Program-made: the position numbers and the translations under genes
Virus record (IMG/VR): IMGVR_UViG_3300021964_000024
Span: 32,001 to 96,000 of that record
Length of the DNA: 64,000 nt
Source: a virus
Strand: one strand, 5' to 3'
Notes under the pieces: model-generated
Databases searched by the model: none
What the model saw: the letters and a program-made list of their open reading frames with translations, nothing else
Told to the model about the DNA's origin: nothing
Part shown: piece after piece, positions 10,318 through 48,645 of the stretch
Position numbering within the stretch: position 1 is the stretch's first letter
Layout of the letters: every line of letters begins with the position of its first letter

Positions 10318-11190
10318 ATGAATTACAGACAGCGCAACGAGTTGATCGTAACCACACCCAGATCTCCTACGGATACTTCGATTGGGAAGTACATCCATAA
10401 AGAAAAGAAGCAAACTGAGTGGGGAAGACTTAACTACACTATTGGTGGTGAAGTCAGACAGAATGATCTAGTCTTGAGATGGAAAGATTTTTGGTCACAT
10501 ACAGTCAATGATGTGTTCAACTACTGTCCTATGTTCCTCAACTATTTGGCGATCAAAGGATACAAGAAGATACTCTTCGTTGGTCACTATAACGCTGCTC
10601 AGACTACATGGACTATCAACCGCAAGATGGACAGGGTAGTACACAAAACTCCAAGTTATCATTCTTTGGATGAGACTATGGTTGACCCTAACATCTGGTT
10701 ACAGTTTCTACCTATTGTCCGTATGGCATATGGGTACATCGATTTCGAAATGCATACAGTGTCTCCTCCGGAATCACGTCACCGTAAAGTCATGAATGCA
10801 CTGTACAAGAGATATGACGTTGATCTAGTGAATTCGGACAAGCAGTACAAGAAAGGTAGAGATGTTCAAATCACAACGCCACCTGATACCCAATATGATT
10901 GTGTAGTACTAGCAGGTGTTCCTAAAGATAGAGATGACTTAGATATCTCTCATCATCACATTCGTTCTGCATTTGCAGGAGTCTGTACTTCAGATTTTGA
11001 TATCGTGGATTTCTACTATAGTGCTCTTCCGTTACAGACTGGTGTATCAGAAGACAACGCCTATTACTTGAATGAAGTGTTTGCGTTGCGTAATGTATGG
11101 GATCAGAGATTCAGAGATGAAAACCCTGAAGACAAGGCAATCCAGTACGCAATTCTAAACGATTCGATTCACTGTTATAAGGGAAGTTAA
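10318..11190 (+). CDS. hypothetical protein
   Basis: 290-aa ORF, no recognisable motif. Confidence 0.6.
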   Translation: MNYRQRNELIVTTPRSPTDTSIGKYIHKEKKQTEWGRLNYTIGGEVRQNDLVLRWKDFWSHTVNDVFNYCPMFLNYLAIKGYKKILFVGHYNAAQTTWTINRKMDRVVHKTPSYHSLDETMVDPNIWLQFLPIVRMAYGYIDFEMHTVSPPESRHRKVMNALYKRYDVDLVNSDKQYKKGRDVQITTPPDTQYDCVVLAGVPKDRDDLDISHHHIRSAFAGVCTSDFDIVDFYYSALPLQTGVSEDNAYYLNEVFALRNVWDQRFRDENPEDKAIQYAILNDSIHCYKGS

Positions 11191-12059
11191 TTCCACTCTA
11201 CGTTCTTAGGTACGTAGTCTTTAATTTTGCGTCTTATCTCTTTATCGAGCGACAGAATCGGAGTAGGTTGTTTTCCTGCTCGTTTGACGTAGAAGTAGTT
11301 TGCGTCCTTAACATAGGAACCACCCTTACCAGACTTAACTAGAGTTGCGTCAACACCAACCTTATTGAATGCAAACACGATGTCTCCGTCGATGTACTTC
11401 TTGAGTTTCTTACCCATGTTGATGATGTCACCCATCGTATTAGCGGCACCACGGTGAGTGTTGATTAGAATCTCTGACGGTACAGTACGTGCACGTTTTG
11501 CATTTTGTTGTTTCGCAACTTCGATGTCGTTAACTACCCATACGATGTGAACGTTCTTTTTATCGTAACCCAACTTAGCGGCATCCTTTGCGATCTTGTC
11601 AAGTTTGTCCAGTGACTTCAGAGTCATGTCAAATATGATGTTCGGTTTACGATCTGGATCTGCGGCAAGGACACCACGATAGAACGCACGTTCTTTTCTC
11701 TTATCGACCCCCAAGTAGTTACCCATGATGTCATGGAGTTTCTCTACGTTCTTGGGATCTTTAAGGTTCTGTGCAAGGTCTTCGATATCAACACCAAGTT
11801 CATCTGCTACACGCTTCTTGATAGCAGGAGTCTTTGATGCCAACGTTTTGAGTTCGTCAACATCAAAGACTTTACCTTCTAGTCCTACTAGATTGGACAA
11901 TACAAATCCTTTCCCAGATCCCGCACCCCCTGCCATGAGTACGATGTTTCCAAACTTAGGATACGCCTCGCCACCAAAGGTGATGAGTTTCTCCATAAGG
12001 ATATTGAATTCCTCTTGTAGAAAGAGGTCTTCTTTTAAAAATGAGTTAAAGGACTGCAT
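11187..12059 (-). CDS. P-loop kinase (AAA_33/zeta-toxin/Pnk-kinase-like) with capsid-targeting-like N-terminus
   Basis: Walker A GGAGSGKG, DVDE, IIFDMT, lid NAKRART; N-terminus MQSFNSFLKE; late promoter at 12093-12100. Confidence 0.7.
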   Translation of the reverse strand: MQSFNSFLKEDLFLQEEFNILMEKLITFGGEAYPKFGNIVLMAGGAGSGKGFVLSNLVGLEGKVFDVDELKTLASKTPAIKKRVADELGVDIEDLAQNLKDPKNVEKLHDIMGNYLGVDKRKERAFYRGVLAADPDRKPNIIFDMTLKSLDKLDKIAKDAAKLGYDKKNVHIVWVVNDIEVAKQQNAKRARTVPSEILINTHRGAANTMGDIINMGKKLKKYIDGDIVFAFNKVGVDATLVKSGKGGSYVKDANYFYVKRAGKQPTPILSLDKEIRRKIKDYVPKNVEWN

Positions 12060-12092: not shown

Positions 12093-12100
12093 TATTTATA
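12093..12100 (-). promoter_or_regulatory. T4 late promoter TATAAATA
   Basis: Exact match upstream of the kinase gene. Confidence 0.75.
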
Positions 12101-35882: not shown

Positions 35883-36035
35883 CTATAAGGGAGATTTTCG
35901 TTTAAGAACCTTCGCAAGCAGTTCATCACGCTTACGTTTCTTTTTCTTTTTCACTACCACTGTAGAGGCATCATCACCCGTACCAACTACGGATGCTGTC
36001 GTTGTGTCCTCAGCATGTGTTTTAAATTTCTTCAT
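35883..36035 (-). CDS. small basic protein with CTS-like start MKKFKTHAE
   Basis: GAGGA SD; poly-Lys tract. Confidence 0.55.
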   Translation of the reverse strand: MKKFKTHAEDTTTASVVGTGDDASTVVVKKKKKRKRDELLAKVLKRKSPL

Positions 36036-36639
36036 TGGTGTCCTCTCTTTTAAGTAAAACCACAACCGACACTTCTACTCCATCACCCCCGTTCCAACGT
36101 CTCTTAGAGTTTTCGATTTCATACACTTCATGTATCTTATAGGGATGATTGTCACTCTGGTCTATATGGTTTACAAATCTTTTTATGTCCGAAAACAGGT
36201 TTATGTCATCTATTAGGATATATGGAATTTTTGCTAGACTACAGTTGATGTAATCTCTTCGCATTGCTTCATGTCTATGATCCCCGTCGATATACGCCAA
36301 ATCGTATCCTTCTGATAATTCTTCGGGTGTGATCTCACGAGAATCTTTGATACCAAATTTGAACCTGTCTCCAAAGATCTTTTCCATCTTATTGGCGGCT
36401 GGTCTAGTATAACGATGTCTTCCAATGTCGATAGAGTGAACTTCGATGTCACGGTCTGTTGAGAGGAAACAGTACGTAGAATGTCCTGCGTTGAATCCGA
36501 TTTCTAAAATCTTCTTTGCACCAGTTGTTGCCAACATGGATTTAAAATTGCGAACGGTCTTATCTGATAGATATGCATGACCTTCGTTGATATATCTTTC
36601 CATACCAGAAAAATGATGGTCATACCTATCTTGCATCAT
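36022..36639 (-). CDS. class I SAM methyltransferase (Methyltransf_24-like)
   Basis: ILEIGFNAGHS, SIDI, DLAYIDGDH, ILIDD. Confidence 0.85.
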   Translation of the reverse strand: MMQDRYDHHFSGMERYINEGHAYLSDKTVRNFKSMLATTGAKKILEIGFNAGHSTYCFLSTDRDIEVHSIDIGRHRYTRPAANKMEKIFGDRFKFGIKDSREITPEELSEGYDLAYIDGDHRHEAMRRDYINCSLAKIPYILIDDINLFSDIKRFVNHIDQSDNHPYKIHEVYEIENSKRRWNGGDGVEVSVVVLLKREDTNEEI

Positions 36640-37217
36640 TTCGATAACTCCGCCGTGGTTATGTAAACTTTTTGATTGGATTTCAGATGAGTCGCTTCGT
36701 AAATGGATAGACCAAGTATCTCATCTATAGGCATAGTCACTTCTACTCTAAGTTGGTCACCTTTCTTGACAACCTCTTCGCACTTAGTAGTGATGCTGTC
36801 ATTCTTGATTCGGTAGATGCCTGGCGATAACTCATTACCTTCTAACATAAACCACTGAGTCTCTTCTGCGAGACAGTCAAGAATGTCTATACCTGTTTCT
36901 TTGTGGATCTTATCTATGTCTCCACCGTGTTCTTTGATCAGTGCAAGAGCGGCACCGTATCGTGCGACCACAGATGAACCGCCTGGCGCTTTTGCCATGA
37001 TTCGTTTTAAATTGAAAACAAGACGATGGAATGTCGTGTAGTGTGCTCTATATGCTTCACGATCATCCATAGAATTCTGTGAGAAGTCTTTGTTCTTATT
37101 TCCGTCTTTGTCTATGATTCCCGCTTTGAACGCTTCGGTATCCTCGAACTTCGTTACCAGAAGTTTCAAGAACCGGATAGTATAGACAAGATCTGCTGCT
37201 GATTTTAATAGTCCCAT
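36636..37217 (-). CDS. conserved hypothetical late protein
   Basis: RFLKLLVT.FE..AFK.GIID..G...YT.FHRLVFNLKR; late promoter at 37224-37231. Confidence 0.65.
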   Translation of the reverse strand: MGLLKSAADLVYTIRFLKLLVTKFEDTEAFKAGIIDKDGNKNKDFSQNSMDDREAYRAHYTTFHRLVFNLKRIMAKAPGGSSVVARYGAALALIKEHGGDIDKIHKETGIDILDCLAEETQWFMLEGNELSPGIYRIKNDSITTKCEEVVKKGDQLRVEVTMPIDEILGLSIYEATHLKSNQKVYITTAELSK

Positions 37218-37226
37218 AGTGCTTAT

Positions 37227-38633
37227 TTATACCGTTTCTACCAGTGCTTTTGGTACTGTTGAATTAAAAATGTTATCAAAGATTCCTTGGTACATAGCGT
37301 ACAGGGCATCCTTGTGAGGAGTAATAAGTTCGTAATCAAACTTGTCCTTGAGGATCTTTCTCTGTATCGGTGAGTCCATACCGAATTCCTGTAACCATCC
37401 CTTTGGACACTTCAACACCTCATGGAAAATTCTCCTGTCATTATATAGTGATCCACACATCACGTCATTATTCTGTGATATGGCACGAGTATAGAACTTA
37501 GGTGTTGTCCACTTTACCATAGCATTCAAGGAGTCCTCACGTGATCTATCTTTATTAAACCACCCCCCTACAAACTGTTCTAAGATCTCCTCGAACGTTT
37601 CATCATCACCCAAGGTATATGTTGCACCGTACTGACCACCCTTGGACGCAATATCCTTTCTTAGTTTGGAAACAACAGACTCTTGATCCTCGTTCCAAAA
37701 CTCATACGCCAACATCTGCATGTGGGGAATGAGATCTCGAAAGAACATCTCATCACCGTTGACTCCGTACATCACTATATCTGGTTTGACTTCACAGTCT
37801 GCAATTTGTTTCATCGTAGGTAAGATAGTTGCCCATCTTGTACTGGAATCATTCAAATACTTTTCAGTATACTCCTTTGCACGGTTCATGTCAAATTCTT
37901 CGAACAGTACGTTTGGATAGTGTGTCGCAATCTCACGTTTATACTTGTGACCATTTTCGCCAGCTAAACATGGTACAACTGTGTACATGTATTGTGGATC
38001 TTCATAAAAGTAGTGAGACTGCAGTGCAGAGTCTATACCCTCTGATAGAGCAATGAATCTATTAGGATACCTGTCCTTGATAACTTGTGCATGACCACTC
38101 ATACACTCGTGAATGAAATCGACCAGTTCTTCGGGATCATTCCTTACTTCAGATTCGTATGCATCACGAGAATCTTGTGTGTATCGATATGAGGGTAGTA
38201 AAGAATTGATGTGACCAAAGAAGGTCTGACGTTCTTTACCAGAAAACTCTCTACGAAGAAATGGTTCATATTGCAAAGACTTCTGTACAATGTCTGATTC
38301 TTGTATCGTCATCCATGGAAGGTGATTGGATAACTCGAACCCATATATCTGAGAAGTAAAGATCTTGTGGTTGTTGAAGTAGTCTAGTGCATAGTCAATT
38401 TTATGAGGTAGAATACGTACCGCAAAGAAATTACCGTTGGCATTTTGTAGTGACCACCAGTCATCCAATAGGGTTTCGATGGGTTGCTCGATAGTGTATC
38501 CCTGCCAGAGTAGAACATATCCCGTACCACTATGTACGTTGACTTCATCATCATGACAGTAGTAGTACTTACCGAAATTTTTTACTTCATGATTTTTTAT
38601 TTTTTTGGGATTCGTACAGACGAAAAACTTCAC
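37227..38633 (-). CDS. asparagine-synthetase-like PP-loop amidoligase
   Basis: ALSEGIDS PP-loop, GVNGDEMF; degenerate N-terminal GAT-like region (NGNF, D.FN..KIF). Confidence 0.65.
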   Translation of the reverse strand: MKFFVCTNPKKIKNHEVKNFGKYYYCHDDEVNVHSGTGYVLLWQGYTIEQPIETLLDDWWSLQNANGNFFAVRILPHKIDYALDYFNNHKIFTSQIYGFELSNHLPWMTIQESDIVQKSLQYEPFLRREFSGKERQTFFGHINSLLPSYRYTQDSRDAYESEVRNDPEELVDFIHECMSGHAQVIKDRYPNRFIALSEGIDSALQSHYFYEDPQYMYTVVPCLAGENGHKYKREIATHYPNVLFEEFDMNRAKEYTEKYLNDSSTRWATILPTMKQIADCEVKPDIVMYGVNGDEMFFRDLIPHMQMLAYEFWNEDQESVVSKLRKDIASKGGQYGATYTLGDDETFEEILEQFVGGWFNKDRSREDSLNAMVKWTTPKFYTRAISQNNDVMCGSLYNDRRIFHEVLKCPKGWLQEFGMDSPIQRKILKDKFDYELITPHKDALYAMYQGIFDNIFNSTVPKALVETV

Positions 38634-38643
38634 CTAAATTTCC

Positions 38644-39117
38644 TCATATTTTTACCCAATAGGATTTTTCGTAACTCTGTAACATATACTCTTTATACAT
38701 GACACCTGTCTCTTGCGATATGTCACCCAGTACGTCTTTTACTGATTCGTGATTCTCTACTCTCCACTTATCTATATCTATTCCTCTCTGACCGTGCAAC
38801 CACGGAGTGACCATTATCCACCCATCATTGACTTCGGTAATGAATCCACATTGATCCGGTCTTGTTTCTAAATCAAGACCATACTTCAGGTATCCACAAT
38901 CAAAGGATCGGCAGACGTGCGGTCTCTTTTCGTAGATTTTACAGTCACCGGATTTCGAGCACAGTTTATTACAACCGGATCCCCAGTCGTATTTGATACC
39001 CTCTTTCAGGGCGACTTTCTGCGATAGGATGATATCAGGATCTTGTCTGGTGTACCAGTTGTCGTGAGTGAATCCTAGTGAGTCGCAACAAGCCGTGCAA
39101 TCTCCACATGGGTTCAT
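38644..39117 (-). CDS. YkgJ-like CxxCxxCC metal-binding protein
   Basis: CGDCTACC...CKIYEKRPHVCRSFDC. Confidence 0.8.
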   Translation of the reverse strand: MNPCGDCTACCDSLGFTHDNWYTRQDPDIILSQKVALKEGIKYDWGSGCNKLCSKSGDCKIYEKRPHVCRSFDCGYLKYGLDLETRPDQCGFITEVNDGWIMVTPWLHGQRGIDIDKWRVENHESVKDVLGDISQETGVMYKEYMLQSYEKSYWVKI

Positions 39118-39476
39118 AGATTTCGTAACCTATCCACCACGAACATATCTTGATCGATACCGACCAGATCATTACCTTCAAGTGCTTTCAAAAAGATAAG
39201 AAACGGTTTGAGAGCAGACCAGTGTTCTGGTTCTATCTTGAGTGCTAACATCTCAACACCAGATTCGAATCCCCAACAATTGAAGATCACGATCAGGTGA
39301 TTAAGGATGAGTCTTTCGGAGAGTTCTTGTGTGTCTCTATAACGATTGAGTAATCGCTTGACATACTTGAATCGTTTGATGTCATCGAAGAATTCTTCAC
39401 TGTCTATGCAGGTAGGATTATAATAATTCTGCGCTGCATAGAGCGTGAAGGTTTTGGGGGTCAGTTCTAATTTCAT
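39114..39476 (-). CDS. conserved hypothetical protein
   Basis: YAAQNYYNP.C...EF.DD.KRFKY.KRL...ERLILNHLIV. Confidence 0.65.
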   Translation of the reverse strand: MKLELTPKTFTLYAAQNYYNPTCIDSEEFFDDIKRFKYVKRLLNRYRDTQELSERLILNHLIVIFNCWGFESGVEMLALKIEPEHWSALKPFLIFLKALEGNDLVGIDQDMFVVDRLRNL

Positions 39477-39494
39477 AATATATCTAGTTGTAAA

Positions 39495-39809
39495 TTAAGA
39501 GAGTGCTTCGATCAATACTGCCTTCGTTGCGTACTTGGAAACTTCAACACCAGTTGACTCTGCGAGTGCAACTAGTTCTGCTTTGGTCATATTTTCGAGA
39601 GACTTGTTACCTACAGGTGCTTCATGCAACATTGCAGGTGCTTCGTGTACTACTTCTTCGACTACAACTTGACCAGAATCAGGATTGATATATGCAGCAA
39701 TGTCATCTGCACTCAATCTAGTGGAGATCAAAAGTTCTCCTGTGTTTGGATCTGCCCATCCACGTGGAGTGGGCACTGCGTCTGTACACCATCTTGGGGG
39801 TTGTAACAT
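39495..39809 (-). CDS. protein with C-terminal HeH/Rho_N-like domain
   Basis: LENMTKAELVALAESTGVEVSKYATKAVLIEAL. Confidence 0.6.
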   Translation of the reverse strand: MLQPPRWCTDAVPTPRGWADPNTGELLISTRLSADDIAAYINPDSGQVVVEEVVHEAPAMLHEAPVGNKSLENMTKAELVALAESTGVEVSKYATKAVLIEALS

Positions 39810-39825
39810 AATTTACTCCTTATCA

Positions 39826-40584
39826 TTACTCAGGGGTTTTACCAGAGAGAATCGCACGAATCACTTCGAACTCTGTCATCTCTTTTTTCACTTTAACATC
39901 TTTAGGTGGTAAAACCTTTTCCATGTCTTCGTGATCTTTTTTGTCAACTTTATGTTTAGCAATGAAGTCCTTACCAGACTTGGATTCTTTGTCATCCATC
40001 TTCTCTGCTTCTGTTGCACCCTTTGCCTGAGCAGCTTTTGCTTCAAACATTGCATCAATAGCATGGAGTAACTCTGCAGTTGCGTCAGATAGGTCTACAC
40101 CCATGTAACTCTCTTTCTTGGTTTTACCGTGCTTCTTCTCACCAATTTTAGAGATCTCGGCAGTCTTGTCGGCAGTGCGAGGGTTCTTATCCTTCTTCTT
40201 AGGATCTTCAGGTTTTTCGTCTTCACCATCAGCGTCTACAGGATCTTCTTCTTTCTCATCCTTTTCTGCTTCTGACTCTTCCTCATCACCATTTTTCTTT
40301 GGAGGGAAAGGCTTCTTCTTCTTCTCTTCGCCTTCCTCTTCGTCTTCTGATTCTTTCTTCACTGCATTCTTGGCAGGTTTCTTACCACCGTCGATTGCAT
40401 CGTCCGTTGCGGCACGTCTCTTATGAAGATACTCATCTGAAGAATCTACGTCTCCATCGTTATCGATATCCTTGTCCTTACGATCTTTGAACTTCTTGTC
40501 GTTCGCTTTATCGTCTACAGGATCAAGTTTGTTTTTTTCGGAGACCATTTCCAAATATGCCTCCATAGTTTTTTGAATTGACAT
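39826..40584 (-). CDS. highly charged late protein with DxDxDG loop (candidate internal head protein)
   Basis: DIDNDGDVDSSDEYLHKRR; late promoter at 40657-40664. Confidence 0.6.
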   Translation of the reverse strand: MSIQKTMEAYLEMVSEKNKLDPVDDKANDKKFKDRKDKDIDNDGDVDSSDEYLHKRRAATDDAIDGGKKPAKNAVKKESEDEEEGEEKKKKPFPPKKNGDEEESEAEKDEKEEDPVDADGEDEKPEDPKKKDKNPRTADKTAEISKIGEKKHGKTKKESYMGVDLSDATAELLHAIDAMFEAKAAQAKGATEAEKMDDKESKSGKDFIAKHKVDKKDHEDMEKVLPPKDVKVKKEMTEFEVIRAILSGKTPE

Positions 40585-40594
40585 TGTTAGTCTC

Positions 40595-40876
40595 CTAGAA
40601 CCAAAACATTTTAATTAGACCACCCAACAGTATTGTCGTAGTGACCCATGCAACTTTATTTATAATCCCCACTGTGTGAGCATTCTCGTTTACCTTCACC
40701 TCTATCTGATCTAACTTTTGAGAGAAGCGGTTCATCCTATCGAAGTTAGCGTGATTGTTTTTTTCAATCGCTATCAACTTCTCTTCCGCTCTCGCCAGAC
40801 TGATCATTGCGTCTGAAAGTTTATCTATTTTACCCTCGATCCTATCGAGACGTTTAGCTTGTGTTTCTGCTGCCAT
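40595..40876 (-). CDS. coiled-coil protein with C-terminal TM
   Basis: RLDRIEGKIDKL; late promoter at 40916-40923. Confidence 0.6.
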   Translation of the reverse strand: MAAETQAKRLDRIEGKIDKLSDAMISLARAEEKLIAIEKNNHANFDRMNRFSQKLDQIEVKVNENAHTVGIINKVAWVTTTILLGGLIKMFWF

Positions 40877-40918
40877 GTGAGGACTTTCCCATTTAATAAA
40901 GTACAAATATACTTCTAT

Positions 40919-41209
40919 TTATACAGTTTTAATTCTTATGACTAGTTGATCTTCACCTTTTATGACTCTATGAAAGGTCATTTTTGGTATAAACAACTTG
41001 TCACCCTTGTTTAATAATCTAGGAAGTTCGTTGTCAAACTGGAATTTCCAACCTTGTCCAGTCTGTTCAATATAGACATACCTGTCCTCACTATCCATAT
41101 GCCAAATGTAATCCATTGGATTACTGTGTATATCAAATGATCTTAGAACATCTCCGTTCATCAACTCATATTGAGTATATGGTCTACCAGAAGAAGTTTC
41201 CACCACCAC
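40919..41209 (-). CDS. cupin-fold protein
   Basis: WH.D.EDR...GWKFQFDNELP...IPK..FHRVIKG. Confidence 0.65.
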   Translation of the reverse strand: MVVETSSGRPYTQYELMNGDVLRSFDIHSNPMDYIWHMDSEDRYVYIEQTGQGWKFQFDNELPRLLNKGDKLFIPKMTFHRVIKGEDQLVIRIKTV

Positions 41210-41696
41210 TTAATCCTAGTTGCTTTGCGTATCTAGGCAATCTACATGCCCAGTATGCCGCAGAAGTTTTGTCATTCTGTTGTGCACACTTGTGACGTGC
41301 AGCGAATGACTTACGTGCTTCAGGATCATTCAACTTGACCTTGAGTCCAGTCGTATCACCCCATGACACTTTCTTAATGTTACCAGTAGATGGATCCTTG
41401 ACGTACACGTAGTACTTCTTCGGGCCACCTGCCTTTGGTTTGTTCAGTTCTGGTTGCTTCTCTTCTTCGAAGATACAGTCCAGTGCAACGTGTTCACCAT
41501 TGAACTCTGCGAACTCACCAAGGTTTGATTCCATGATGTCTACTTCGTTTGGTTGAACCTCAATATCACCGTTCTGATACTGTTCACGCTTTTCACGCCA
41601 GTACTCGAAGTATCTCTCAGATCCTACACGGTATGGATTGTCCTCAACTAGTTTGGACTCAGATCCGCATTCGCAATGTTCGTTAAATGTCTTCAT
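41184..41696 (-). CDS. CTS-bearing protein (DUF6321-like C-terminal domain)
   Basis: MKTFNEHCE start; KKVSWGD...ARKSFAARHKC...AAYWACR. Confidence 0.6.
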   Translation of the reverse strand: MKTFNEHCECGSESKLVEDNPYRVGSERYFEYWREKREQYQNGDIEVQPNEVDIMESNLGEFAEFNGEHVALDCIFEEEKQPELNKPKAGGPKKYYVYVKDPSTGNIKKVSWGDTTGLKVKLNDPEARKSFAARHKCAQQNDKTSAAYWACRLPRYAKQLGLSGGGNFFW

Positions 41697-42817
41697 GTGA
41701 TATACGTATTCAGTTCGTACTTACCACCACCCATGCCATAGACTTGGACTGCAAGTTTCTTTTTAGGATTGTCCTTGAGTTTCAGTGTGAAACTGTTGGT
41801 CTTACCGTCAGAGGGTTTCTTCGGCCCCATAGCGACTTGACGGTCTACATCATCCATATCAACTTCATGTCCCTTCTTCTTCGCCCATGCATATGCGTGT
41901 TGCATTGCCGCAGAGTAAGTCTTGTGATATAGGTCATACCCAGACGAAGACTTAGAACCCATCTTAGGTGGTTCTTGCTTCTTTGGTGTTGCCCTACGTT
42001 GACCACGGTAGTATGCTTCACGAATCTGTGAGAGAGGTTTACCGACTTCCTCTTTTACAATTTTGGTCATGACCGCAGCCATGTCACCCAGTGCAAGTGT
42101 TGCGTCCTTACCACCACGACTGTACAGGAAGTACTTCATGCCGCCTGGCTTACCCTTGGGATACATCTGGATCTTATCCACGTTGTACTTAGCACTACGT
42201 GACTTACCTTTTACAACAAAGGTAGTAGTAGTCCCTTTACGAATAGATGAGTCATAAGTGATAGTGACTTCATCACCCTTCTTCAACTTATCGAAATCTT
42301 TACGAGGCATCGCCATTTCACTCAACGTTGATTCTTTCAATTTATAACCCATCTTGTCAAACTTGTCGTGATCTGCAGGAGTATTTACTTTAACGCTTTT
42401 ACCTGTCTTAGGATTATACATCATATGAGGTTCGAAGTCAACACTTTCACCTTTCTCTTTCTTAGAGATTGCGATTGCCGCTTGTTGTGCAGGGGATACT
42501 GCTTCGTTCTTACTTCTAAGTACTGCAGCTACCTGTTTGTGCTTAGACAAACCTTTCTTGATCTTTTCGATTGCCTTGACCGCACCAGTGTAGTTACCAC
42601 CCGCATATCGTTTATCAGATGCAACACCGATTGCCATCTTGATTTCTTTGGGGGTGAAACCCTCCGCAACCTTCTTAGCCTGTGCAGTAGCGATTGCCAT
42701 TTTCTTATCCATTGGCATGTCTGGATCGTCTTTCTCAATCGCTTTTGCAATTTCCTCACGCTTCTTTTTCTCAGCGGGAGTAAGGGTCTTTTCTCTTAGG
42801 GAATCAAAACTTCTCAT
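41693..42817 (-). CDS. CTS-bearing multi-module basic protein
   Basis: MRSFDSLRE start; short basic modules separated by xxE motifs. Confidence 0.6.
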   Translation of the reverse strand: MRSFDSLREKTLTPAEKKKREEIAKAIEKDDPDMPMDKKMAIATAQAKKVAEGFTPKEIKMAIGVASDKRYAGGNYTGAVKAIEKIKKGLSKHKQVAAVLRSKNEAVSPAQQAAIAISKKEKGESVDFEPHMMYNPKTGKSVKVNTPADHDKFDKMGYKLKESTLSEMAMPRKDFDKLKKGDEVTITYDSSIRKGTTTTFVVKGKSRSAKYNVDKIQMYPKGKPGGMKYFLYSRGGKDATLALGDMAAVMTKIVKEEVGKPLSQIREAYYRGQRRATPKKQEPPKMGSKSSSGYDLYHKTYSAAMQHAYAWAKKKGHEVDMDDVDRQVAMGPKKPSDGKTNSFTLKLKDNPKKKLAVQVYGMGGGKYELNTYIT

Positions 42818-43092
42818 CTTGGCCTCGGTGGTTGGTATCCTGCTTTCTTCAGAAGGTCTTTTGCTTTTACACGATCATGGTACATGAACTGATACTGCTT
42901 ACCATTCTTTAAATCCTTAACGATGTAACTCTTCGGCCCCATCTTAATGATCTTACCTTCTCTCTTATCACCGTTCTCACTCTTGTAGAAATCAACCTCT
43001 CTACCTACACTGATAGAGTTCTTGGTTTCAGCACCCATACCTTTAGTTGCGAGAACACGGTAATTCTCTCTTAATTCTTTAAACGTCTTCAT
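42814..43092 (-). CDS. CTS-bearing small basic protein
   Basis: MKTFKELRE, close to the T4 IPI start MKTFKEF. Confidence 0.6.
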   Translation of the reverse strand: MKTFKELRENYRVLATKGMGAETKNSISVGREVDFYKSENGDKREGKIIKMGPKSYIVKDLKNGKQYQFMYHDRVKAKDLLKKAGYQPPRPR

Positions 43093-43361
43093 GCCAGATC
43101 CTTGTCGTGATTAAGGTTACCCTTCTTTTTCTTAACTATAAATGCATTGACTCGTGCCATTCCCCACTGCTGTGGTGTAGTGCCGGGTCTATGCCCTGTT
43201 TTCCATGCAGCGACTCCACGATTGTATACCTTCTTCAATGTCTCCGGAGAGATACCAGACTTCTTTGCTTTTGCCGCAATGCCATCTGGGCCTTCTTTGA
43301 CATCAAGAGTATCGTATAGAGAATAACGCCCCTCTTCCAAATACTTACTAAAACCTATCAT
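43089..43361 (-). CDS. CTS-bearing DUF5824-like protein
   Basis: MIGFSKYLEE; LKKVYNRGVAAWKTGHRPGTTPQQWGMARVNAF. Confidence 0.6.
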   Translation of the reverse strand: MIGFSKYLEEGRYSLYDTLDVKEGPDGIAAKAKKSGISPETLKKVYNRGVAAWKTGHRPGTTPQQWGMARVNAFIVKKKKGNLNHDKDLA

Positions 43362-44983
43362 TTGGTTGCCCTATTTTTTTGTTTAGCACGAGCGAGTCGT
43401 GCACGATCTAATAACTTGTCGTGTTTGATCTTATCTGATTCTTTCTCACGTTCGATGTCTGCACGTGCATTCTTAACTGGATCGGTTTCTTCGTTTTTAA
43501 CCATCTTACCCAGTGCTCTGACATCTAACTTGAGTCCGTGTTTACGAACCAACTCTGAAGCATAGTACTCAGGGGAGTGTCTGTTGTTGTCCTTCTCCAT
43601 CTGTTTCTTGATGTAGTCTGCAACTTGACTATACTGTTTTTTCTGTATAGTTTTAGACATCCATCTCCTTAACATCTGAGGGGTAGTCTCTGCATTGAGA
43701 CACATCTCAAACGAGATCTCTAAACCCTCACTGAGTTGTGCGTCAGTGTAGAACCTCTTCAGTTCACGGTTGAGACCAGAGAGCATTGCAGGTTTTAGGA
43801 GTTTGAAAATGACACCCTTGTCGGTGTTTCCGTCGAACTTCAACACGCCCTTCTTCTCGTATTTCTGGAGAATGTCTACGACCTTATCTTCATCCTTACC
43901 CAAGTTGTCCATACGGACGTGTACTTCTTTCTCTTTCGCTTCGTTGTACATATCCTTGAACGCCTTCGTGTACTTCGAAGGTTTGGTCTCTGCACTCTTA
44001 TCGCCAGGCGCAGGTTTGTACGCAGACGAATCGTCATCGTCTTTCTTACCGTGCTTCTTGAAGTGTGCGTCTCTCTTTGCCTTGGTGGACTTCTTCAGTC
44101 CTGCATGATATCGGGCAGGTTGAGTTCCCTCTCTATCTTTGATATCTGGGTCTTGTTTTTCAACGAGTTCGACTGCATCCAACCATTTGCGTAGTCGAGT
44201 GCCATCTGTGCGTTCGACGATAACGTAATTTGCTCCGAGCACTGAGACTGTAACCAGTTCGTCATTTTCTTTGACAACCACTGTGTCACCGACCTCATAC
44301 AGTTCCCCCTGTACGTATTGTTCTCTTGTTTCTGAAACAGGTTTTAGTGAGATGTGGTTCTTGAATTCGGTAGTCTCTTTGAGACCCATACCAGTACGCA
44401 CATCATTGAATAGTTTACGTGCGTCCTTGTTGGACATTGTTTTTGGTACACCCTGAGAGAATGTAACGAAGTCATTCTTAGAGGCGTTCTCACGTTGCTT
44501 AGATGCAGACATACCTTCTACACCCGCCGCATCTGGATCACGTGCACCCGCAGAGATCACATTGATACTCTTGAAGTTGTAGAATCCGTGACGTGCCTTC
44601 TTACCGTTGTACTTGTTCAGGAGAACTTCAAACTCACGGATGCGATCTTCACCCACAACCATGTTGACCTTGGTGTAACCTGCATTGTAAAGTTTGTTTG
44701 CAACGTCGAATACATTGCGACAGTCCTTATCCATAATCACTTGACGTGCATGTTTTGGAAACATTTTACGCACGTGCTTGATCTTATCTGAGTAGGACAG
44801 AGGATCTTTCTTAGGATTAGATACCTGAGATAAGTATACCTTGTAGTCTGACTTACCTGACTTAGATGCAAGAGTGTCCATAACCTTACCATGTCCTATG
44901 GTAGGTGGGTTCATACGTCCGAAGGTAAAGTAGACTTCTCTCTCTTCTTCTAGTAGGTACTGCGAGAAATTCTTAATCGGCAC
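43358..44983 (-). CDS. cytidylyltransferase-like (HIGH-superfamily) nucleotidyltransferase with appended modules
   Basis: FTFGRMNPPTIGH, MVVGEDR, SAGARDPD, MSASKQR; GTG start giving MPIKNFSQYLLEE. Confidence 0.8.
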   Translation of the reverse strand: MPIKNFSQYLLEEEREVYFTFGRMNPPTIGHGKVMDTLASKSGKSDYKVYLSQVSNPKKDPLSYSDKIKHVRKMFPKHARQVIMDKDCRNVFDVANKLYNAGYTKVNMVVGEDRIREFEVLLNKYNGKKARHGFYNFKSINVISAGARDPDAAGVEGMSASKQRENASKNDFVTFSQGVPKTMSNKDARKLFNDVRTGMGLKETTEFKNHISLKPVSETREQYVQGELYEVGDTVVVKENDELVTVSVLGANYVIVERTDGTRLRKWLDAVELVEKQDPDIKDREGTQPARYHAGLKKSTKAKRDAHFKKHGKKDDDDSSAYKPAPGDKSAETKPSKYTKAFKDMYNEAKEKEVHVRMDNLGKDEDKVVDILQKYEKKGVLKFDGNTDKGVIFKLLKPAMLSGLNRELKRFYTDAQLSEGLEISFEMCLNAETTPQMLRRWMSKTIQKKQYSQVADYIKKQMEKDNNRHSPEYYASELVRKHGLKLDVRALGKMVKNEETDPVKNARADIEREKESDKIKHDKLLDRARLARAKQKNRATK

Positions 44984-45353
44984 TCTGACTTCCCTTCTTC
45001 TTTCTTGCAAGTTCTGCTTTGCGAACTTGTGGAATCATCTTACGTGCTAACTTGTCGATAACCGCTTTCTTCTTATCCAGTTGTTTCTCTATGTTCTGTC
45101 TACGAGACATAGAGAGTTCTGCCTTAGGAATGTCTTTGGTTATCTTCTTGAGTAATACTTCACGTGCAGCTTTACGTGCACGTTTCTTGAGAACGTCTAG
45201 ACTAGCAATTTTCTTTGCCGCTCTCTTTCTACCGATAGCGATCTTTGCTTTGTTCTTTTTGAATGCACGTGAGCGAGCCATGCGTTGTTGCATGGACAAT
45301 GCCTCGTCGGGAGACTCGCTAAATTGTTTGAATCGTAACGGACTATCCGCCAT
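44973..45353 (-). CDS. very basic CTS-like protein
   Basis: LRFKQFSE start, Arg/Lys-rich. Confidence 0.6.
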   Translation of the reverse strand: MADSPLRFKQFSESPDEALSMQQRMARSRAFKKNKAKIAIGRKRAAKKIASLDVLKKRARKAAREVLLKKITKDIPKAELSMSRRQNIEKQLDKKKAVIDKLARKMIPQVRKAELARKKKGSQSAD

Positions 45354-45355
45354 TT

Positions 45356-46576
45356 TTAATTCCTCGTAGGTTTATCCCATCCTTTAAGTATATCTGGTGA
45401 AAAGTTGTTGTATGAAAATTCCATACGATCAACAAGTTTCACTGCATCACCACCAAGTATATCGATTGCAACGTAACCCTCTTCTCCGGTTACCTTATAC
45501 CCTTGATTTGTTTTGACAAAAGTATCAATCTTCTTCAAACTGTTAAGTTTATTTATAAGTTTTAGTTTCGCAAGTATGATGACTTTTTGCAATTCAATCA
45601 TTTTTATTAGACTCGCCTTGTTCGTAGGTGAGAAGAATACCATGATTGCATCTAATTTGTCCTGTTGTGTTTTCTTTCCTCTTGCGGTGCTTCGTGCATT
45701 GATTTGCTTCTGATACTTCTGCTTAATCCAACGGATAAGTCCCGCAACATGTCTTCTTGAATCGGGGATAACTGTTCCCGCACGTACATACGTGTTGTAG
45801 TATTGTTCGATAAGTTTTGCGAGATCTTCGTTCGCTTCGAGCGTCCTAAGAGTCGTTCCCGAAATTTGGTTAAACAACTTACCGGCTTGCGATAGATACC
45901 CATTGACCTCTTCTGTCTCCTCTTGCGTCATGGTTGCTTTAGTCGCATCCGTCAACATGGCATCCTGAGACCAAACATTACTTGATTTTTTGAATCCTTT
46001 TACGTTTACACCATACGATGCTTTCATGTTTTCGAATGTAGTACCGTTATATGTAGTATGCCACACTATACCGATTTTTGCAGATCGTATCTCTGCAGCG
46101 GCATCATAGGGTACTGCATATGCGATTGTGTTGGGGTGAAATACTGTGTACTTCTCTTTGTCTATTGTTTTGGTTTCAAGGTCATCTGAACTGAACAGGA
46201 AGTCTCCCTGTATCACACCCTTGATACCTAGATCTGGTAGATACTGCAAAGCAGCTTTCATCTTAGATGCAAGATCACCAGACATATCTGCATCGATCTC
46301 TGCATTAGTCTTATAGACCTTTGGGTTCTTTGCAAAGATACCTTTCTTCGCCACAAAGAACTCACCGTCTCGTGGATCTTCACCACAGAAAATTGCAGGT
46401 GCACCATCCCACTTAACAGAAACTCTTCCGTCCTTTTTACCAGATAACATATCACGCAGTTCACGTAGTGCATTGATTGCTTGACGTGTACCGTTCACAC
46501 CACCATAGAGAACCTTGTCCTCAATATGGGTCATGTGGGTGTTCTTCTGTTCTGTGATAAACTCTGCGAAATTCAT
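45356..46576 (-). CDS. DUF6267-like protein with ATP-dependent ligase-type motifs
   Basis: MNFAEFITE start; KWDG (motif I), QGD, EEGYV (motif IV), VKLVDR (motif V). Confidence 0.6.
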   Translation of the reverse strand: MNFAEFITEQKNTHMTHIEDKVLYGGVNGTRQAINALRELRDMLSGKKDGRVSVKWDGAPAIFCGEDPRDGEFFVAKKGIFAKNPKVYKTNAEIDADMSGDLASKMKAALQYLPDLGIKGVIQGDFLFSSDDLETKTIDKEKYTVFHPNTIAYAVPYDAAAEIRSAKIGIVWHTTYNGTTFENMKASYGVNVKGFKKSSNVWSQDAMLTDATKATMTQEETEEVNGYLSQAGKLFNQISGTTLRTLEANEDLAKLIEQYYNTYVRAGTVIPDSRRHVAGLIRWIKQKYQKQINARSTARGKKTQQDKLDAIMVFFSPTNKASLIKMIELQKVIILAKLKLINKLNSLKKIDTFVKTNQGYKVTGEEGYVAIDILGGDAVKLVDRMEFSYNNFSPDILKGWDKPTRN

Positions 46577-47286
46577 AGTTTGACCAGTATACCTTCTGCA
46601 AAGACGGAACCAAACGTTGAACCGGACAAAGAACGCAACTGCATCTCAATGTCCGTCTTCTCATCATACTTGAACGGTGCTTGTCTCACGATATTCATGT
46701 TCTCAAAGAAAGTTGTATCTGCGACTCTCAACTGTCTTCCATTTGAAGCCGTCAAAAAGTTTCTGAATCGAGCCGCTTTACCACCGTTCGCATCTGTACA
46801 GAATGCATCGATACGAGTCAAAAAGAAACAGTGTCCTGCTGGCACCGTGTATACCGATTTTTGATCTCTACCAGTCCCCGCAAGAATCTTTGCGTATGTG
46901 GTTCCGCCATTAGAGACGGTGATATCACCAACTGCATTTCCGACTGTGATCACCGCATCATTGATTCGATAGAAAGAGTTTGTCGTTGTGACGGTAGTTG
47001 TACCGTTTACGGCAACCACTTCACTGATAGGATTGCAATCCCCGTCTAGTCCTAGAAGTAGGAGAGATATCCCAGTATCCCCCGCATCAGAACTAACCAC
47101 AGACATGGTTACTGCCGAAGATGGGAACGCATAGTTTGATGCCTCTTCCCAAGGGGTTCGAAACTCTGAGGTAACGATATTATCCGTACCGCCTGTGGTT
47201 CCGAAGATGTTACGCACCGAAGTGTTGACTACCAACTCCCGTGCGATATTTAATTGGACATCATCTATATAGTGTGATATGGCCAT
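46573..47286 (-). CDS. beta-rich hypothetical protein (possible structural protein)
   Basis: Thr/Val/Gly-rich; YTVPAG motif; late operon. Confidence 0.55.
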   Translation of the reverse strand: MAISHYIDDVQLNIARELVVNTSVRNIFGTTGGTDNIVTSEFRTPWEEASNYAFPSSAVTMSVVSSDAGDTGISLLLLGLDGDCNPISEVVAVNGTTTVTTTNSFYRINDAVITVGNAVGDITVSNGGTTYAKILAGTGRDQKSVYTVPAGHCFFLTRIDAFCTDANGGKAARFRNFLTASNGRQLRVADTTFFENMNIVRQAPFKYDEKTDIEMQLRSLSGSTFGSVFAEGILVKL

Positions 47287-47287
47287 G

Positions 47288-48595
47288 TTACATTACCTTT
47301 AAGTGGACGGCAGAATCTGCTGATTCTGATTTGGCAACCCTGTACAACAGGGTCATTAGTTGTTGCTCTCTACCTTTTACCATAGTGAACATAGTTGTCA
47401 CGTAGTACTTAGAGACTAACCAGTTAGAATCTTTGTTCTTTAGTTTAGTGCCAAATGTTTGACGGTCAACAGGGTTGTCAATCGCACCAGTATAGAATCC
47501 ATAGAACTTATCAAGGAACGCTTCCCTGTCACTACGGATCTCTGCTTCAATTGTTTTACGAACCTCAAGACGATTACGAGTAGTCGCATACAATGCGGCA
47601 TCAATACCACCCTGAGATACCTTACCATGCTTTGCCTTCTTACCAATGATCTCACACTGGAACGTAGGGAAGGTACGGAATTGAATCTCAAGACCGCCCT
47701 GACCAAACAAGTATCCGTCCTTTGACTTAAAGAAGTCATTACGCTTGTTGTAGGACACAGCACGGAAGACAGGTGGTTTAAATGGTTTCTTGTAGTTGAC
47801 CTGAGATATTCTAGGTTTACCACTAGCAGCTTTCTTCAGTGAGATACCAAGAATGTCACGTGCTGCATATGCCTTGAGTAATTCTTGATTGAGTGCTTTG
47901 ATGGATCCTGCACCCTCAATATCATACGCACCCTCTTTACCAGATTTGACCATCCAGATGTCTGCAGGTGTCCACTTATTAACGTCTTGGAATAATTTCT
48001 CTGCACGGTTCAACTCTTTGAACTTGTTTTCCAAAGCAGTGACCCAAGGTGATCCACGATGGAAACTATATGTTCCCTGTTTCTTTAGAACCTTATATAA
48101 GGTACGTGCGACATCAATAGATGATGCAATCCATTTTTCATCTCTTAACATCACTTCATCTGCAGTTGCATCGACGTGAACTTTAGCGTATGCGTTCTGG
48201 ATTGCTTCGGGTGTGAACTGAGTTGTGGGATCGTCCCACACTGCTTGAAGGTAAACACACTGTGCAGACTCAGTTGCTTTAGTGTTGTCAGATCCACCAC
48301 CGGATCCACGACCACCACCAAACTCTTTGGTCTTTGCTAGTTTACCAAATGAAATTTTGTTCCCTGCATTGTCTTCTAGACCAATGCTGTTTGCAGTTTT
48401 ACTGTCTTTTGCCTTGAGTGCTTTTTCAATCTCTGCGTTATACTTCAGGACAACCGTACCACCGGCTGATAACTCAAACGGTTCATTACCCTTGTACTTT
48501 CTCAAGAACAATTCTAGTCGGAACGCCCTGTCATCACGAGTGATCTCACCAAATGTGAGATTACCTTCTGACAGAAAGCTAGAAAATTTTAACAT
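47288..48595 (-). CDS. PD-(D/E)xK-type nuclease-like protein with CTS-like start
   Basis: MLKFSSFLSE; TESAQ...KWTPADIW...GISLKK. Confidence 0.55.
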   Translation of the reverse strand: MLKFSSFLSEGNLTFGEITRDDRAFRLELFLRKYKGNEPFELSAGGTVVLKYNAEIEKALKAKDSKTANSIGLEDNAGNKISFGKLAKTKEFGGGRGSGGGSDNTKATESAQCVYLQAVWDDPTTQFTPEAIQNAYAKVHVDATADEVMLRDEKWIASSIDVARTLYKVLKKQGTYSFHRGSPWVTALENKFKELNRAEKLFQDVNKWTPADIWMVKSGKEGAYDIEGAGSIKALNQELLKAYAARDILGISLKKAASGKPRISQVNYKKPFKPPVFRAVSYNKRNDFFKSKDGYLFGQGGLEIQFRTFPTFQCEIIGKKAKHGKVSQGGIDAALYATTRNRLEVRKTIEAEIRSDREAFLDKFYGFYTGAIDNPVDRQTFGTKLKNKDSNWLVSKYYVTTMFTMVKGREQQLMTLLYRVAKSESADSAVHLKVM

Positions 48596-48637
48596 TAATC
48601 GGTCTCCGTTTCTTTACTGTTGCCCACAGTATACCAC

Positions 48638-48645
48638 TATTTATA
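48638..48645 (-). promoter_or_regulatory. T4 late promoter heading the CTS cluster
   Basis: Exact TATAAATA, 43 bp upstream of 48595. Confidence 0.8.

Follow-up and report, generated by a model that had tools for sequence, protein, structure and literature searches.

Why should a series of phage proteins that have almost nothing else in common begin with nearly the same ten residues? The question is raised by a 64,000-nucleotide stretch of viral DNA (the window), comprising bases 32001-96000 of the 105.8-kb IMG/VR virus contig IMGVR_UViG_3300021964_000024, which is rated ~62% complete. An earlier note, made from the letters of the window alone, had listed ten near-identical N-termini, nine of them between positions 35883 and 48645 of the window and one on a kinase at 11187, and had likened them to the capsid targeting sequence (CTS) of the T4 internal proteins (IPs), which are packaged into the head and injected with the DNA. 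All ten were located where the note had put them, on the minus strand, and we consider its reading probable: in our estimate, the chance is about 75% that the shared N-terminus is a T4-type CTS combined with a prohead-protease site. Support comes from four T4 positions that are kept in the leaders, from the presence of the protease in relatives, from a leader on the gene adjacent to this protease, from homologues in virions, and from a conserved late promoter.

The source of the window is a T4-like marine myovirus. Its closest complete genome is Phage C48C1 (OQ984149, Kyanoviridae, 156 kb), whose DUF6267 protein is 69% identical to that of the window, and the region is syntenic with the mazG/gp41-nrdA block of cyanomyoviruses such as S-8S29 and S-SCSM1. 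IMG/VR holds at least 600 related stretches, 80 of which we used for comparison as uncultured relatives. To group orthologues, we used the mature part of each protein and then inspected the sequence upstream of the conserved mature start. The motif, its statistics, protein-level conservation, synteny, fusions and folds described below come from the present analysis, while the T4 rules and the virion proteomes are taken from the literature.

A common leader on unrelated proteins

Judged from their sequences, the leaders appear to follow the consensus M-x-x-F-x-x-[F/Y]-[L/I]-x-E or a shorter form, M-x-x-F-x-x-L-x-E. Leaders of ten residues have Phe at position 4 and Phe or Tyr at position 7; those of nine residues (MKTFKELRE type) keep Phe4 and have Leu at position 7. 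They end in LSE, ITE, LLE, LEE, LRE (twice) and LKE, with FSE, HCE and HAE as exceptions. When all six frames of the entire contig were searched with the regular expression M..F..[FYLH].{1,2}E, 8 matches were obtained, every one of them within the first 19 residues of a stop-to-stop open reading frame (ORF) and at the first Met of a coding-strand gene, and no internal matches were found. A slightly wider expression matched 9 of the 144 called genes, compared to a mean of 0.34 (maximum 3) in 300 rounds of shuffling residues 2-60. The earlier note had proposed an enrichment check of this kind, genome-wide and in relatives, and the observed number likewise exceeds the shuffled one in C48C1 (6 motif genes, 0.57 expected) and in the ordinary cyanophage S-SCSM1 (4 motif genes, 0.8 expected). 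These counts, relative to expectation, suggest that the expansion of the motif is specific to the clade of the window.

The statement that the proteins are otherwise unrelated is borne out by an all-against-all BLASTP comparison of the mature parts, which finds no similarity; the exception is a pair of neighbours, a transferase and the following 90-aa protein, in which the C-terminus of the former and the latter constitute two halves of DUF5824. Some leader boundaries had to be redrawn. The leader listed as LRFKQFSE is present in a 126-aa protein, which itself starts with MADSP and carries the motif from residue 6. The leader of the transferase is present as well, with a start codon that is most likely GTG 44983 (MPIKNF...), giving MPIKNFSQYLLEE; most relatives read GTG/ATG-IKNF at this place. 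MNFAEFITE, the leader of the DUF6267 protein, is one residue short of the usual 10-mer, and many of its orthologues read M-x-x-F-x-x-[FY]-ITE. With the kinase at 11187 included, the number of ten carriers stands, and several genes inside the range 35883-48645 are leaderless, namely those at 46573-47286, 40919-41209, 40595-40906, 39495-39809, 39114-39476, 38644-39117, 37227-38633, 36636-37217 and 36022-36639.

Selection on the leader peptide

The orthologues indicate which leader residues matter. Counting back from the terminal Glu (P1), the DUF6267 family (57 distinct contexts) and the transferase family (25) have Glu at P1 and Leu, Ile, Val or Met at P3 in 100% of cases, an aromatic residue at P4 in 96-100%, and Phe or Tyr at P7 in 100%, with P2, P5, P6, P8 and P9 being variable. 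Different synonymous codons encode these conserved residues (TTT/TTC; ATA/ATC/ATT; six for Leu; GAA/GAG), which rules out a signal at the nucleotide level. The leader thus appears to be under protein-level selection at four positions, and the motif is kept in orthologues down to 35-40% identity. When the transferase is aligned at 40% identity with cyanophage orthologues starting with MKSFLQFLKE and MKKFSAFLIE, the K, F, L and E of the leader are invariant; the cyanophage transferases have a linker of 70-100 aa after the leader, which is missing from the transferase of the window.

The length of the leader varies. In a 31-sequence alignment (A1) of the family of the first operon protein, which has 435 aa, M1, E10 and L13 are invariant and F4 is present in at least 90%; the leader of this family ranges from 8 to ~45 aa, with insertions of up to ~35 residues between M..F and [LI]-x-E, and [LI]-x-E always stands directly before the conserved mature start (G/S)SLTFGE. 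The distance of the motif from the start codon varies by 0-5 residues. Both leaders tested with AlphaFold2 are disordered (residues 1-9 of the 435-aa protein and 1-13 of the DUF6267 protein; pLDDT <50).

Correspondence to targeting and processing in T4

The T4 record confirms the leader sequences that the earlier note had cited for comparison: IPII and IPIII start with MKTYQEFIAE and IPI with MKTFKEF. In IPIII, the first 10 residues suffice for incorporation into the head, and mutagenesis has assigned targeting mainly to residues 4 and 7, and processing by the protease gp21, which cleaves after L/I-x-E, to residues 8 and 10 (PMC9026906). The four positions conserved in the leaders of the window (4, 7, 8 and 10) are those that matter in T4 IPIII. 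The leaders also end like the cleavage site of the major capsid protein, given that the maturation site of T4 gp23, GSFLTE65/A (a slash marks the cut or junction here and below), aligns with GGFLTE57/T of C48C1, and both sites read FLTE.

A gp21-type prohead protease (Peptidase_S77) is encoded by C48C1, S-SCSM1, S-8S29 and two IMG/VR relatives from the clade of the window. Directly upstream of the protease, at the position of T4 genes 67/68, C48C1 and the two IMG/VR relatives have a small gene whose product starts with MRTFKELRE, LKTFEQIRE or MKTFQQIRE, and the equivalent in S-SCSM1 is ORF38 (MGPFKSLNE), which is annotated as a virion protein.

If the leader is a CTS, its aromatic residues at positions 4 and 7 would bind the scaffolding core of the assembling prohead, and a gp21-like protease (Peptidase_S77) would then cleave after the leader Glu. 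The mature proteins would be retained in the head together with the DNA and would exit with it at infection. As cargo, we would expect an RNA-ligase-fold enzyme, an NMNAT-like transferase, a P-loop kinase, the 435-aa protein and several small basic proteins. For this phage, we infer core binding, cleavage, retention, packaging and ejection, the last by analogy to the T4 IPs, Alt and CTS fusions (including beta-galactosidase and nucleases), which are the proteins for which ejection is known (PMC9026906).

Probable late expression of the carrier genes

A T4-type late promoter box, TATAAATA, is present at 48638-48645 on the minus strand, as the earlier note had it; the box overlaps the stop codon of the upstream gene and lies 42 nucleotides before the ATG at 48595. 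It is conserved: in 22 of 23 relatives, a box lies within 120 nucleotides upstream of the orthologue of the first gene. In the same comparison, none was found before internal genes of the operon. Given that a box precedes the first gene only, a single transcript from 48595 to ~40919 fits. Another copy of TATAAATA, at 12093-12100 on the minus strand, is located 33 nucleotides before the ATG of the kinase gene. In total, the window contains 13 boxes where 2.3 are expected, among them further ones before 40906, 37217 (box at 37224) and the kinase at 12059. A late sigma factor is among the annotations of C48C1. Judging by these boxes, the cargo proteins are probably made late, from the promoter at 48638 and the second one before the kinase.

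The putative cargo

All genes described in this section are on the minus strand. The first gene of the operon (47288-48595; leader MLKFSSFLSE) encodes the 435-aa protein, which is possibly nuclease-like. Its AlphaFold2 model (pLDDT 87.5) found no match with Foldseek, and the best VIA Z-score was 3.7. E109, D212, S252 and K254 are invariant in the family. As to nucleases, the fold search gave only MspI (Z 3.0) and HinP1I (Z 2.8), and the Atlas leads RE_HaeIII and RE_HpaII (0.83-0.84) fall under the Atlas trust level, so that a PD-(D/E)xK nuclease is a weak lead. The homologue in S-SCSM1, ORF90, is annotated as a virion protein.

Better defined is the 406-aa DUF6267 protein (45356-46576; leader MNFAEFITE; Pfam DUF6267, E 9e-102), whose AlphaFold2 model (pLDDT 90.4) suggests an RNA-ligase-like fold of the covalent nucleotidyltransferase kind. 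VIA-align pairs this model with Naegleria RNA ligase (Z 7.6 over 185 aa), Trl1 (Z 7.5 over 200), T4 Rnl2 (Z 7.2) and T4 Rnl1 (Z 6.7); across seven ligases (5cot, 9r3w, 6n0t, 2hvq, 9do4, 1xdn and 2hiv) the scores are Z 6.2-7.6 over 165-200 residues, a range that allows for chance arrangements. Every long structural alignment listed was to an RNA or DNA ligase, and the top Foldseek matches were DNA ligases (E 0.1-0.4). K55-x-D57-G58 (motif I), E366-G367 and K380 (motif IV/V-like) show no variation across 39 sequences with identities as low as 34%. Taken from model and motifs, the protein is with moderate confidence ligase-like, leaning to RNA ligase.

Two genes further on, after the 126-aa Lys/Arg-rich protein (44973-45353; leader-like PLRFKQFSE at residues 5-13), whose C48C1 orthologue starts with MLSFKQFVSE, lies the gene for a 541-aa protein with similarity to NMNAT and cytidylyltransferases by Pfam and PHROG (43358-44983; GTG start; leader MPIKNFSQYLLEE), which places it in the nucleotidyltransferase alpha/beta phosphodiesterase superfamily. 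It scores 23.7 bits against Pfam CTP_transf_like (cut-off 21) and E 3e-68 against PHROG 395 ("cytidyltransferase"), and FGR.NPPT.GH and MSASK.R, motifs of the (H/T)xGH and SxxxxR types, are invariant. A four-sequence profile run against the PDB recovered only NMNAT, at a weak E of 0.64. The C-terminal extension includes the first half of DUF5824 (Pfam). An SH3-like part of the protein ends, near residues 270-280, in a conserved string, WLDAVELVE. Two relatives have the first module of a 374-aa protein described below immediately after this string (...AVELVE/KKLTPAE), and this junction together with the conservation suggests an internal cleavage site within the 541-aa protein.

The second half of DUF5824 forms the 90-aa protein (43089-43361; Pfam E 8e-20; leader MIGFSKYLEE), orthologues of which read MI[NSG]FKKYL.E. 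Next come a 92-aa protein (42814-43092; leader MKTFKELRE) and a Lys-rich, multi-module protein of 374 aa (41693-42817; leader MRSFDSLRE), both recognized as ORFs and by the regular expression. The 170-aa Cys-rich protein at 41184-41696 starts with MKTFNEH and has its likely processing site at L-V-E, around residue 18; MK.F.[ED]H is kept in 19 distinct orthologues, in which LVE is conserved and Glu9 is not. A 50-aa basic protein (35883-36035; leader MKKFKTHAE) is encoded in another unit, which follows the late box at 37224, and its orthologues read MK.F.KF.E[ED].

Far from the operon, the gene at 11187-12059 encodes a 290-aa P-loop kinase of the Zeta-toxin/AAA_33 type with the leader MQSFNSFLKE (Pfam Zeta_toxin, 39.8 bits, cut-off 22.3; AAA_33, 22.9 bits, below the cut-off of 27). 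Homologues with ~50% identity occur in 214 Straboviridae records from phages of Klebsiella, Aeromonas, Enterobacter, Cronobacter and Morganella, and the three N-termini inspected, MTLKSFKEFITLDE, MKMKFSEFVQLEE and MKSFLKLAE, are all CTS-like. Given these T4-like sequences, the kinase may be delivered by the head, so far unrecognised, in many cultured T4-like phages; a proteome paper on a Klebsiella phage has nothing on the kinase.

Of the activities that the earlier note had assigned to the cargo, the ligase-like protein is backed by fold and motifs, the nucleotidyltransferase and the kinase stand, and the nuclease is unproven. The four large cargo proteins found no sequence match in the PDB, and six proteins searched against NCBIfam had none either.

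Polyproteins and separate genes

When we searched for longer relatives of the DUF6267 protein, three kinds of fusion emerged, with lengths of 750-1377 aa. In P0121-P0123 (~750 aa), the kinase is joined to DUF6267 behind an N-terminus reading MISFLEHIAE or MLSFSQHITE, an arrangement resembling the fungal tRNA ligase Trl1, in which ligase and kinase domains are likewise fused. Fusions of DUF6267, transferase and DUF5824 have ~855 aa and no leader. The longest forms, P0133, P0135 and P0137 (1314-1377 aa), start with MNFKDFIVE and contain DUF6267, 126-aa-like, DUF5824 and 170-aa-like parts in the gene order of the window; P0133 and P0137 additionally match the C-terminal part of the transferase. 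In P0124-P0128, the transferase is joined to the second half of DUF5824.

The junctions resemble the ends of the leaders. Internal DUF6267 domains come directly after KTFTSLNE/, SFKSITE/ or NSFKELLTE/; the 92-aa domain inside longer ORFs of relatives is joined by DLTE/NYR, LLHE/NYR or LIDE/NYR; and internal copies of the first module of the 374-aa protein follow SVEE/, VVE/ or LVE/. Conversely, in relative G001 the last 82 residues of the 374-aa protein form a separate gene with its own leader, MITFDQLRE. In related phages, the modules seem to be strung into one long polyprotein or a few, with [L/I/V]-x-E at the junctions, while the lineage of the window would have them as separate genes, each with a leader of its own. 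Given that stand-alone genes need no linker and yet keep a selected leader, the leader is likely to be more than a cut mark, as is predicted for a targeting signal. A position-specific scoring matrix built from the 10-mer N-terminal leaders found few internal sites in the polyproteins, and it was dropped because it does not model the shorter leader class.

Homologues in virions

Relatives of the cargo proteins have been reported from purified particles. In S-SM1, the cytidylyltransferase T4-GC190 was represented by 25 peptide counts (Sullivan et al. 2010), and according to published mass spectrometry of S-SCSM1, the syntenic ORFs 89, 90, 91 (NMNAT), 92, 93, 95 and 97 are virion proteins. ORF91 starts with MKSFLQFLKE and ORF89 with MDSKTFNSLSE. 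The cytidylyltransferase of S-CREM2 (ORF154) was also detected in virions, with the authors noting that contamination could not be excluded. A text search of the virion papers on cyanomyoviruses found no mention of a targeting leader or protease site, and in the literature on CTS in cyanophages we found only T4 reviews and no paper describing leaders on enzyme cargo.

Several observations speak against a head-targeting role of the leader. Neither the prohead protease nor a capsid gene is on the contig, which is ~62% complete, and the mature proteins have no homology to T4 IPI, IPII or IPIII, in that no PHROG or Pfam match names an internal protein; such homology is not defining for the mechanism, as the T4 IPs are themselves mutually unrelated. 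Two of the leaders, MKTFNEHCE and MKKFKTHAE, have His instead of Leu or Ile at P3. In S-SCSM1, the small terminase subunit (terS) matches the regular expression, likely by chance, the virion proteins ORF90 and ORF92 of the cluster have no leader, and ORF30, with its perfect leader MKTFKQFMSE, was undetected in virions. In addition, the authors of the proteomic studies on S-SCSM1 and S-CREM2 pointed out that abundant late proteins may co-purify with virions.

Alternative explanations

The same facts could be read without any delivery into the host. The motif would then be a recognition or linker element for the protease, and the proteins would make up a prohead-core scaffold similar to T4 gp22, gp67 and gp68, which is cut and expelled before the DNA is packaged. 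The occurrence of the motif at internal domain junctions of the polyproteins agrees with this idea, as does its presence on the gene at the gp67/gp68 position, and T4 core proteins are indeed cut at many L/I-x-E sites and then leave the head (PMC9026906). We nevertheless think it unlikely: homologues were found with many peptides in mature, CsCl-purified virions, the set includes well-folded enzymes with conserved catalytic motifs that a disposable scaffold would not need, and stand-alone genes keep their leader under purifying selection.

A function unconnected to the head seems more improbable still; the motif would then act in translation initiation or on the mRNA, as a helix that binds a membrane or chaperone, or as a tag for degradation. 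Short MK.F starts are AT-rich and could favour initiation, but the use of synonymous codons at the conserved residues does not fit an element of this kind, nor do start-codon spacings that vary by 0-5 residues and leader insertions of up to 35 aa. Furthermore, the motif is found at domain junctions within proteins, its end resembles the maturation site of the capsid protein, and its carriers cluster behind late promoters and have homologues annotated as virion proteins. Mere chance or compositional bias does produce matches, as the shuffles give 0.3-0.8 of them per genome, and S-SCSM1 (terS) and the contig (the gene at 102907, see below) each have a probable false positive. Set against 9 observed and 0.34 expected, the lack of internal matches in six frames, and the conservation among orthologues to 35-40% identity, this explanation of the shared N-terminus has a practically negligible likelihood.

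Relation to known systems

A CTS with a prohead-protease site, the reading that we prefer, has its closest precedent in the T4 IPs: they, too, have a leader of ~10 residues with aromatic positions 4 and 7, Ile or Leu at 8 and Glu at 10, which is carried by unrelated late proteins and comes from a phage lineage that has a gp21-type protease (compare T4 MKTYQEFIAE with MLKFSSFLSE, MQSFNSFLKE and MIGFSKYLEE of the window). In T4, the carriers are three small basic proteins of the anti-restriction type and, by sequence, gp61.1, whereas the window has at least ten carriers of up to 541 aa, several of which are enzymes. The clade of the window further differs by its variable leader length and by the polyprotein forms found in relatives. 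T4 Alt, an ADP-ribosyltransferase, is comparable as a sizeable enzyme that is carried in the head, trimmed by gp21, ejected, and active before phage genes are expressed; in contrast to the leaders described here, it has a 7-residue propeptide that is not an IP-type CTS, and the enzyme families are different.

Giant phages of the phiKZ-like group (201phi2-1, SPN3US) also have many head-internal proteins, some of them enzymes; a diverged homologue of gp21 cleaves these proteins after Glu, and their propeptides can hold multiple sites. Unlike the window, they show almost no determinant beyond the Glu and no common M..F..F-L-x-E leader, they possess an inner body, and they represent a different lineage. 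The nearest relatives in terms of cargo are the NMNAT/cytidylyltransferase-like virion proteins of the cyanomyoviruses S-SM1, S-CBWM1, S-SZBM1, S-SCSM1 and S-CREM2, which belong to the same family, come from the syntenic mazG/gp41-nrdA cluster and were detected by mass spectrometry; these papers report detection only and leave true encapsidation open.

The kind of mechanism is known from T4, and what is new is its scale, the enzyme cargo, the equivalence of polyprotein and operon, and the presence in an abundant marine clade. Proteome papers on cyanophages have found NMNAT-like enzymes and kinases in virions and left undecided whether they are encapsidated or contaminants, a question for which the conserved leader offers a concrete loading mechanism. 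The CTS principle would be extended from three small coliphage proteins to enzyme cargo in an abundant ocean clade (at least 600 IMG/VR stretches), with gene fission and fusion around protease sites as a route by which cargo sets evolve. The leader also gives a rule by which proteins delivered from the head could be predicted on the basis of genome sequence alone. A broader picture, which we advance tentatively and with more doubt than belief, is that phages of this uncultured, widespread marine T4-like clade deliver a ready enzyme kit from the head along with the DNA. With its P-loop kinase, RNA-ligase-fold enzyme and NMNAT-like transferase, such a kit could counter host defences in advance, by mending cut tRNA or replenishing NAD while no phage gene is yet expressed, and it would be encoded either as a polyprotein of >1300 aa that the prohead protease cuts in the capsid, or as separate genes that have each acquired a leader.

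Neighbouring genes and additional observations

Inside the operon, the leaderless gene at 46573-47286 (minus strand) encodes a 237-aa protein of PHROG 8198 that starts with MAISHY and has one weak tblastn match under a gene annotated as tail fiber protein. Downstream, a 252-aa acidic and Lys-rich protein (39826-40584, minus strand) has another conserved leader, M..K.MEAYL.MVSE/K. Its N-terminus resembles that of S-SCSM1 ORF92, an annotated virion protein, and internal versions end in LAE/K or VSE/K. This may constitute a second leader class, and we assign the protein to the cargo set only tentatively. Between leader-bearing genes, the leaderless genes at 36022-36639 and 38644-39117 encode a class I S-adenosylmethionine (SAM) methyltransferase (Methyltransf_24) and a protein with a CxxCxxCC zinc/iron-chelating domain. 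Outside the window, at 102110-102907 of the contig, lies a gene for a 265-aa protein that starts with MSAFTKFNE and matches no assigned family; a late box does not precede the gene. The protein may be a further carrier or a chance match, and was handled as a possible false positive because the late box is missing and P3 is Phe.

In C48C1, the annotated starts of two genes seem to be wrong. For the small gene before the protease, the record uses an internal ATG, whereas translation from a GTG yields MRTFKELRE; for the cytidyltransferase, it uses MNPPTIGH, although the frame runs on upstream through ...KNFSQYLLEEEREVYFTFGR. The virion protein ORF93 of S-SCSM1 ends in a CTS-like C-terminal string, ...KKKRTFKEFLEYIE, which may be the remnant of a fusion with the next gene.

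In T4 itself, the product of a gene adjoining the primase gene 61, the 54-aa protein gp61.1, is annotated as hypothetical and starts with MKTFKEFIKE. We considered the 50-aa protein of the window as a homologue of gp61.1, and rejected this since position and composition are alike but the similarity is not significant (E 88). Besides ipI, ipII and ipIII, gp61.1 has the only N-terminus in T4 that is matched by the CTS DNA pattern.

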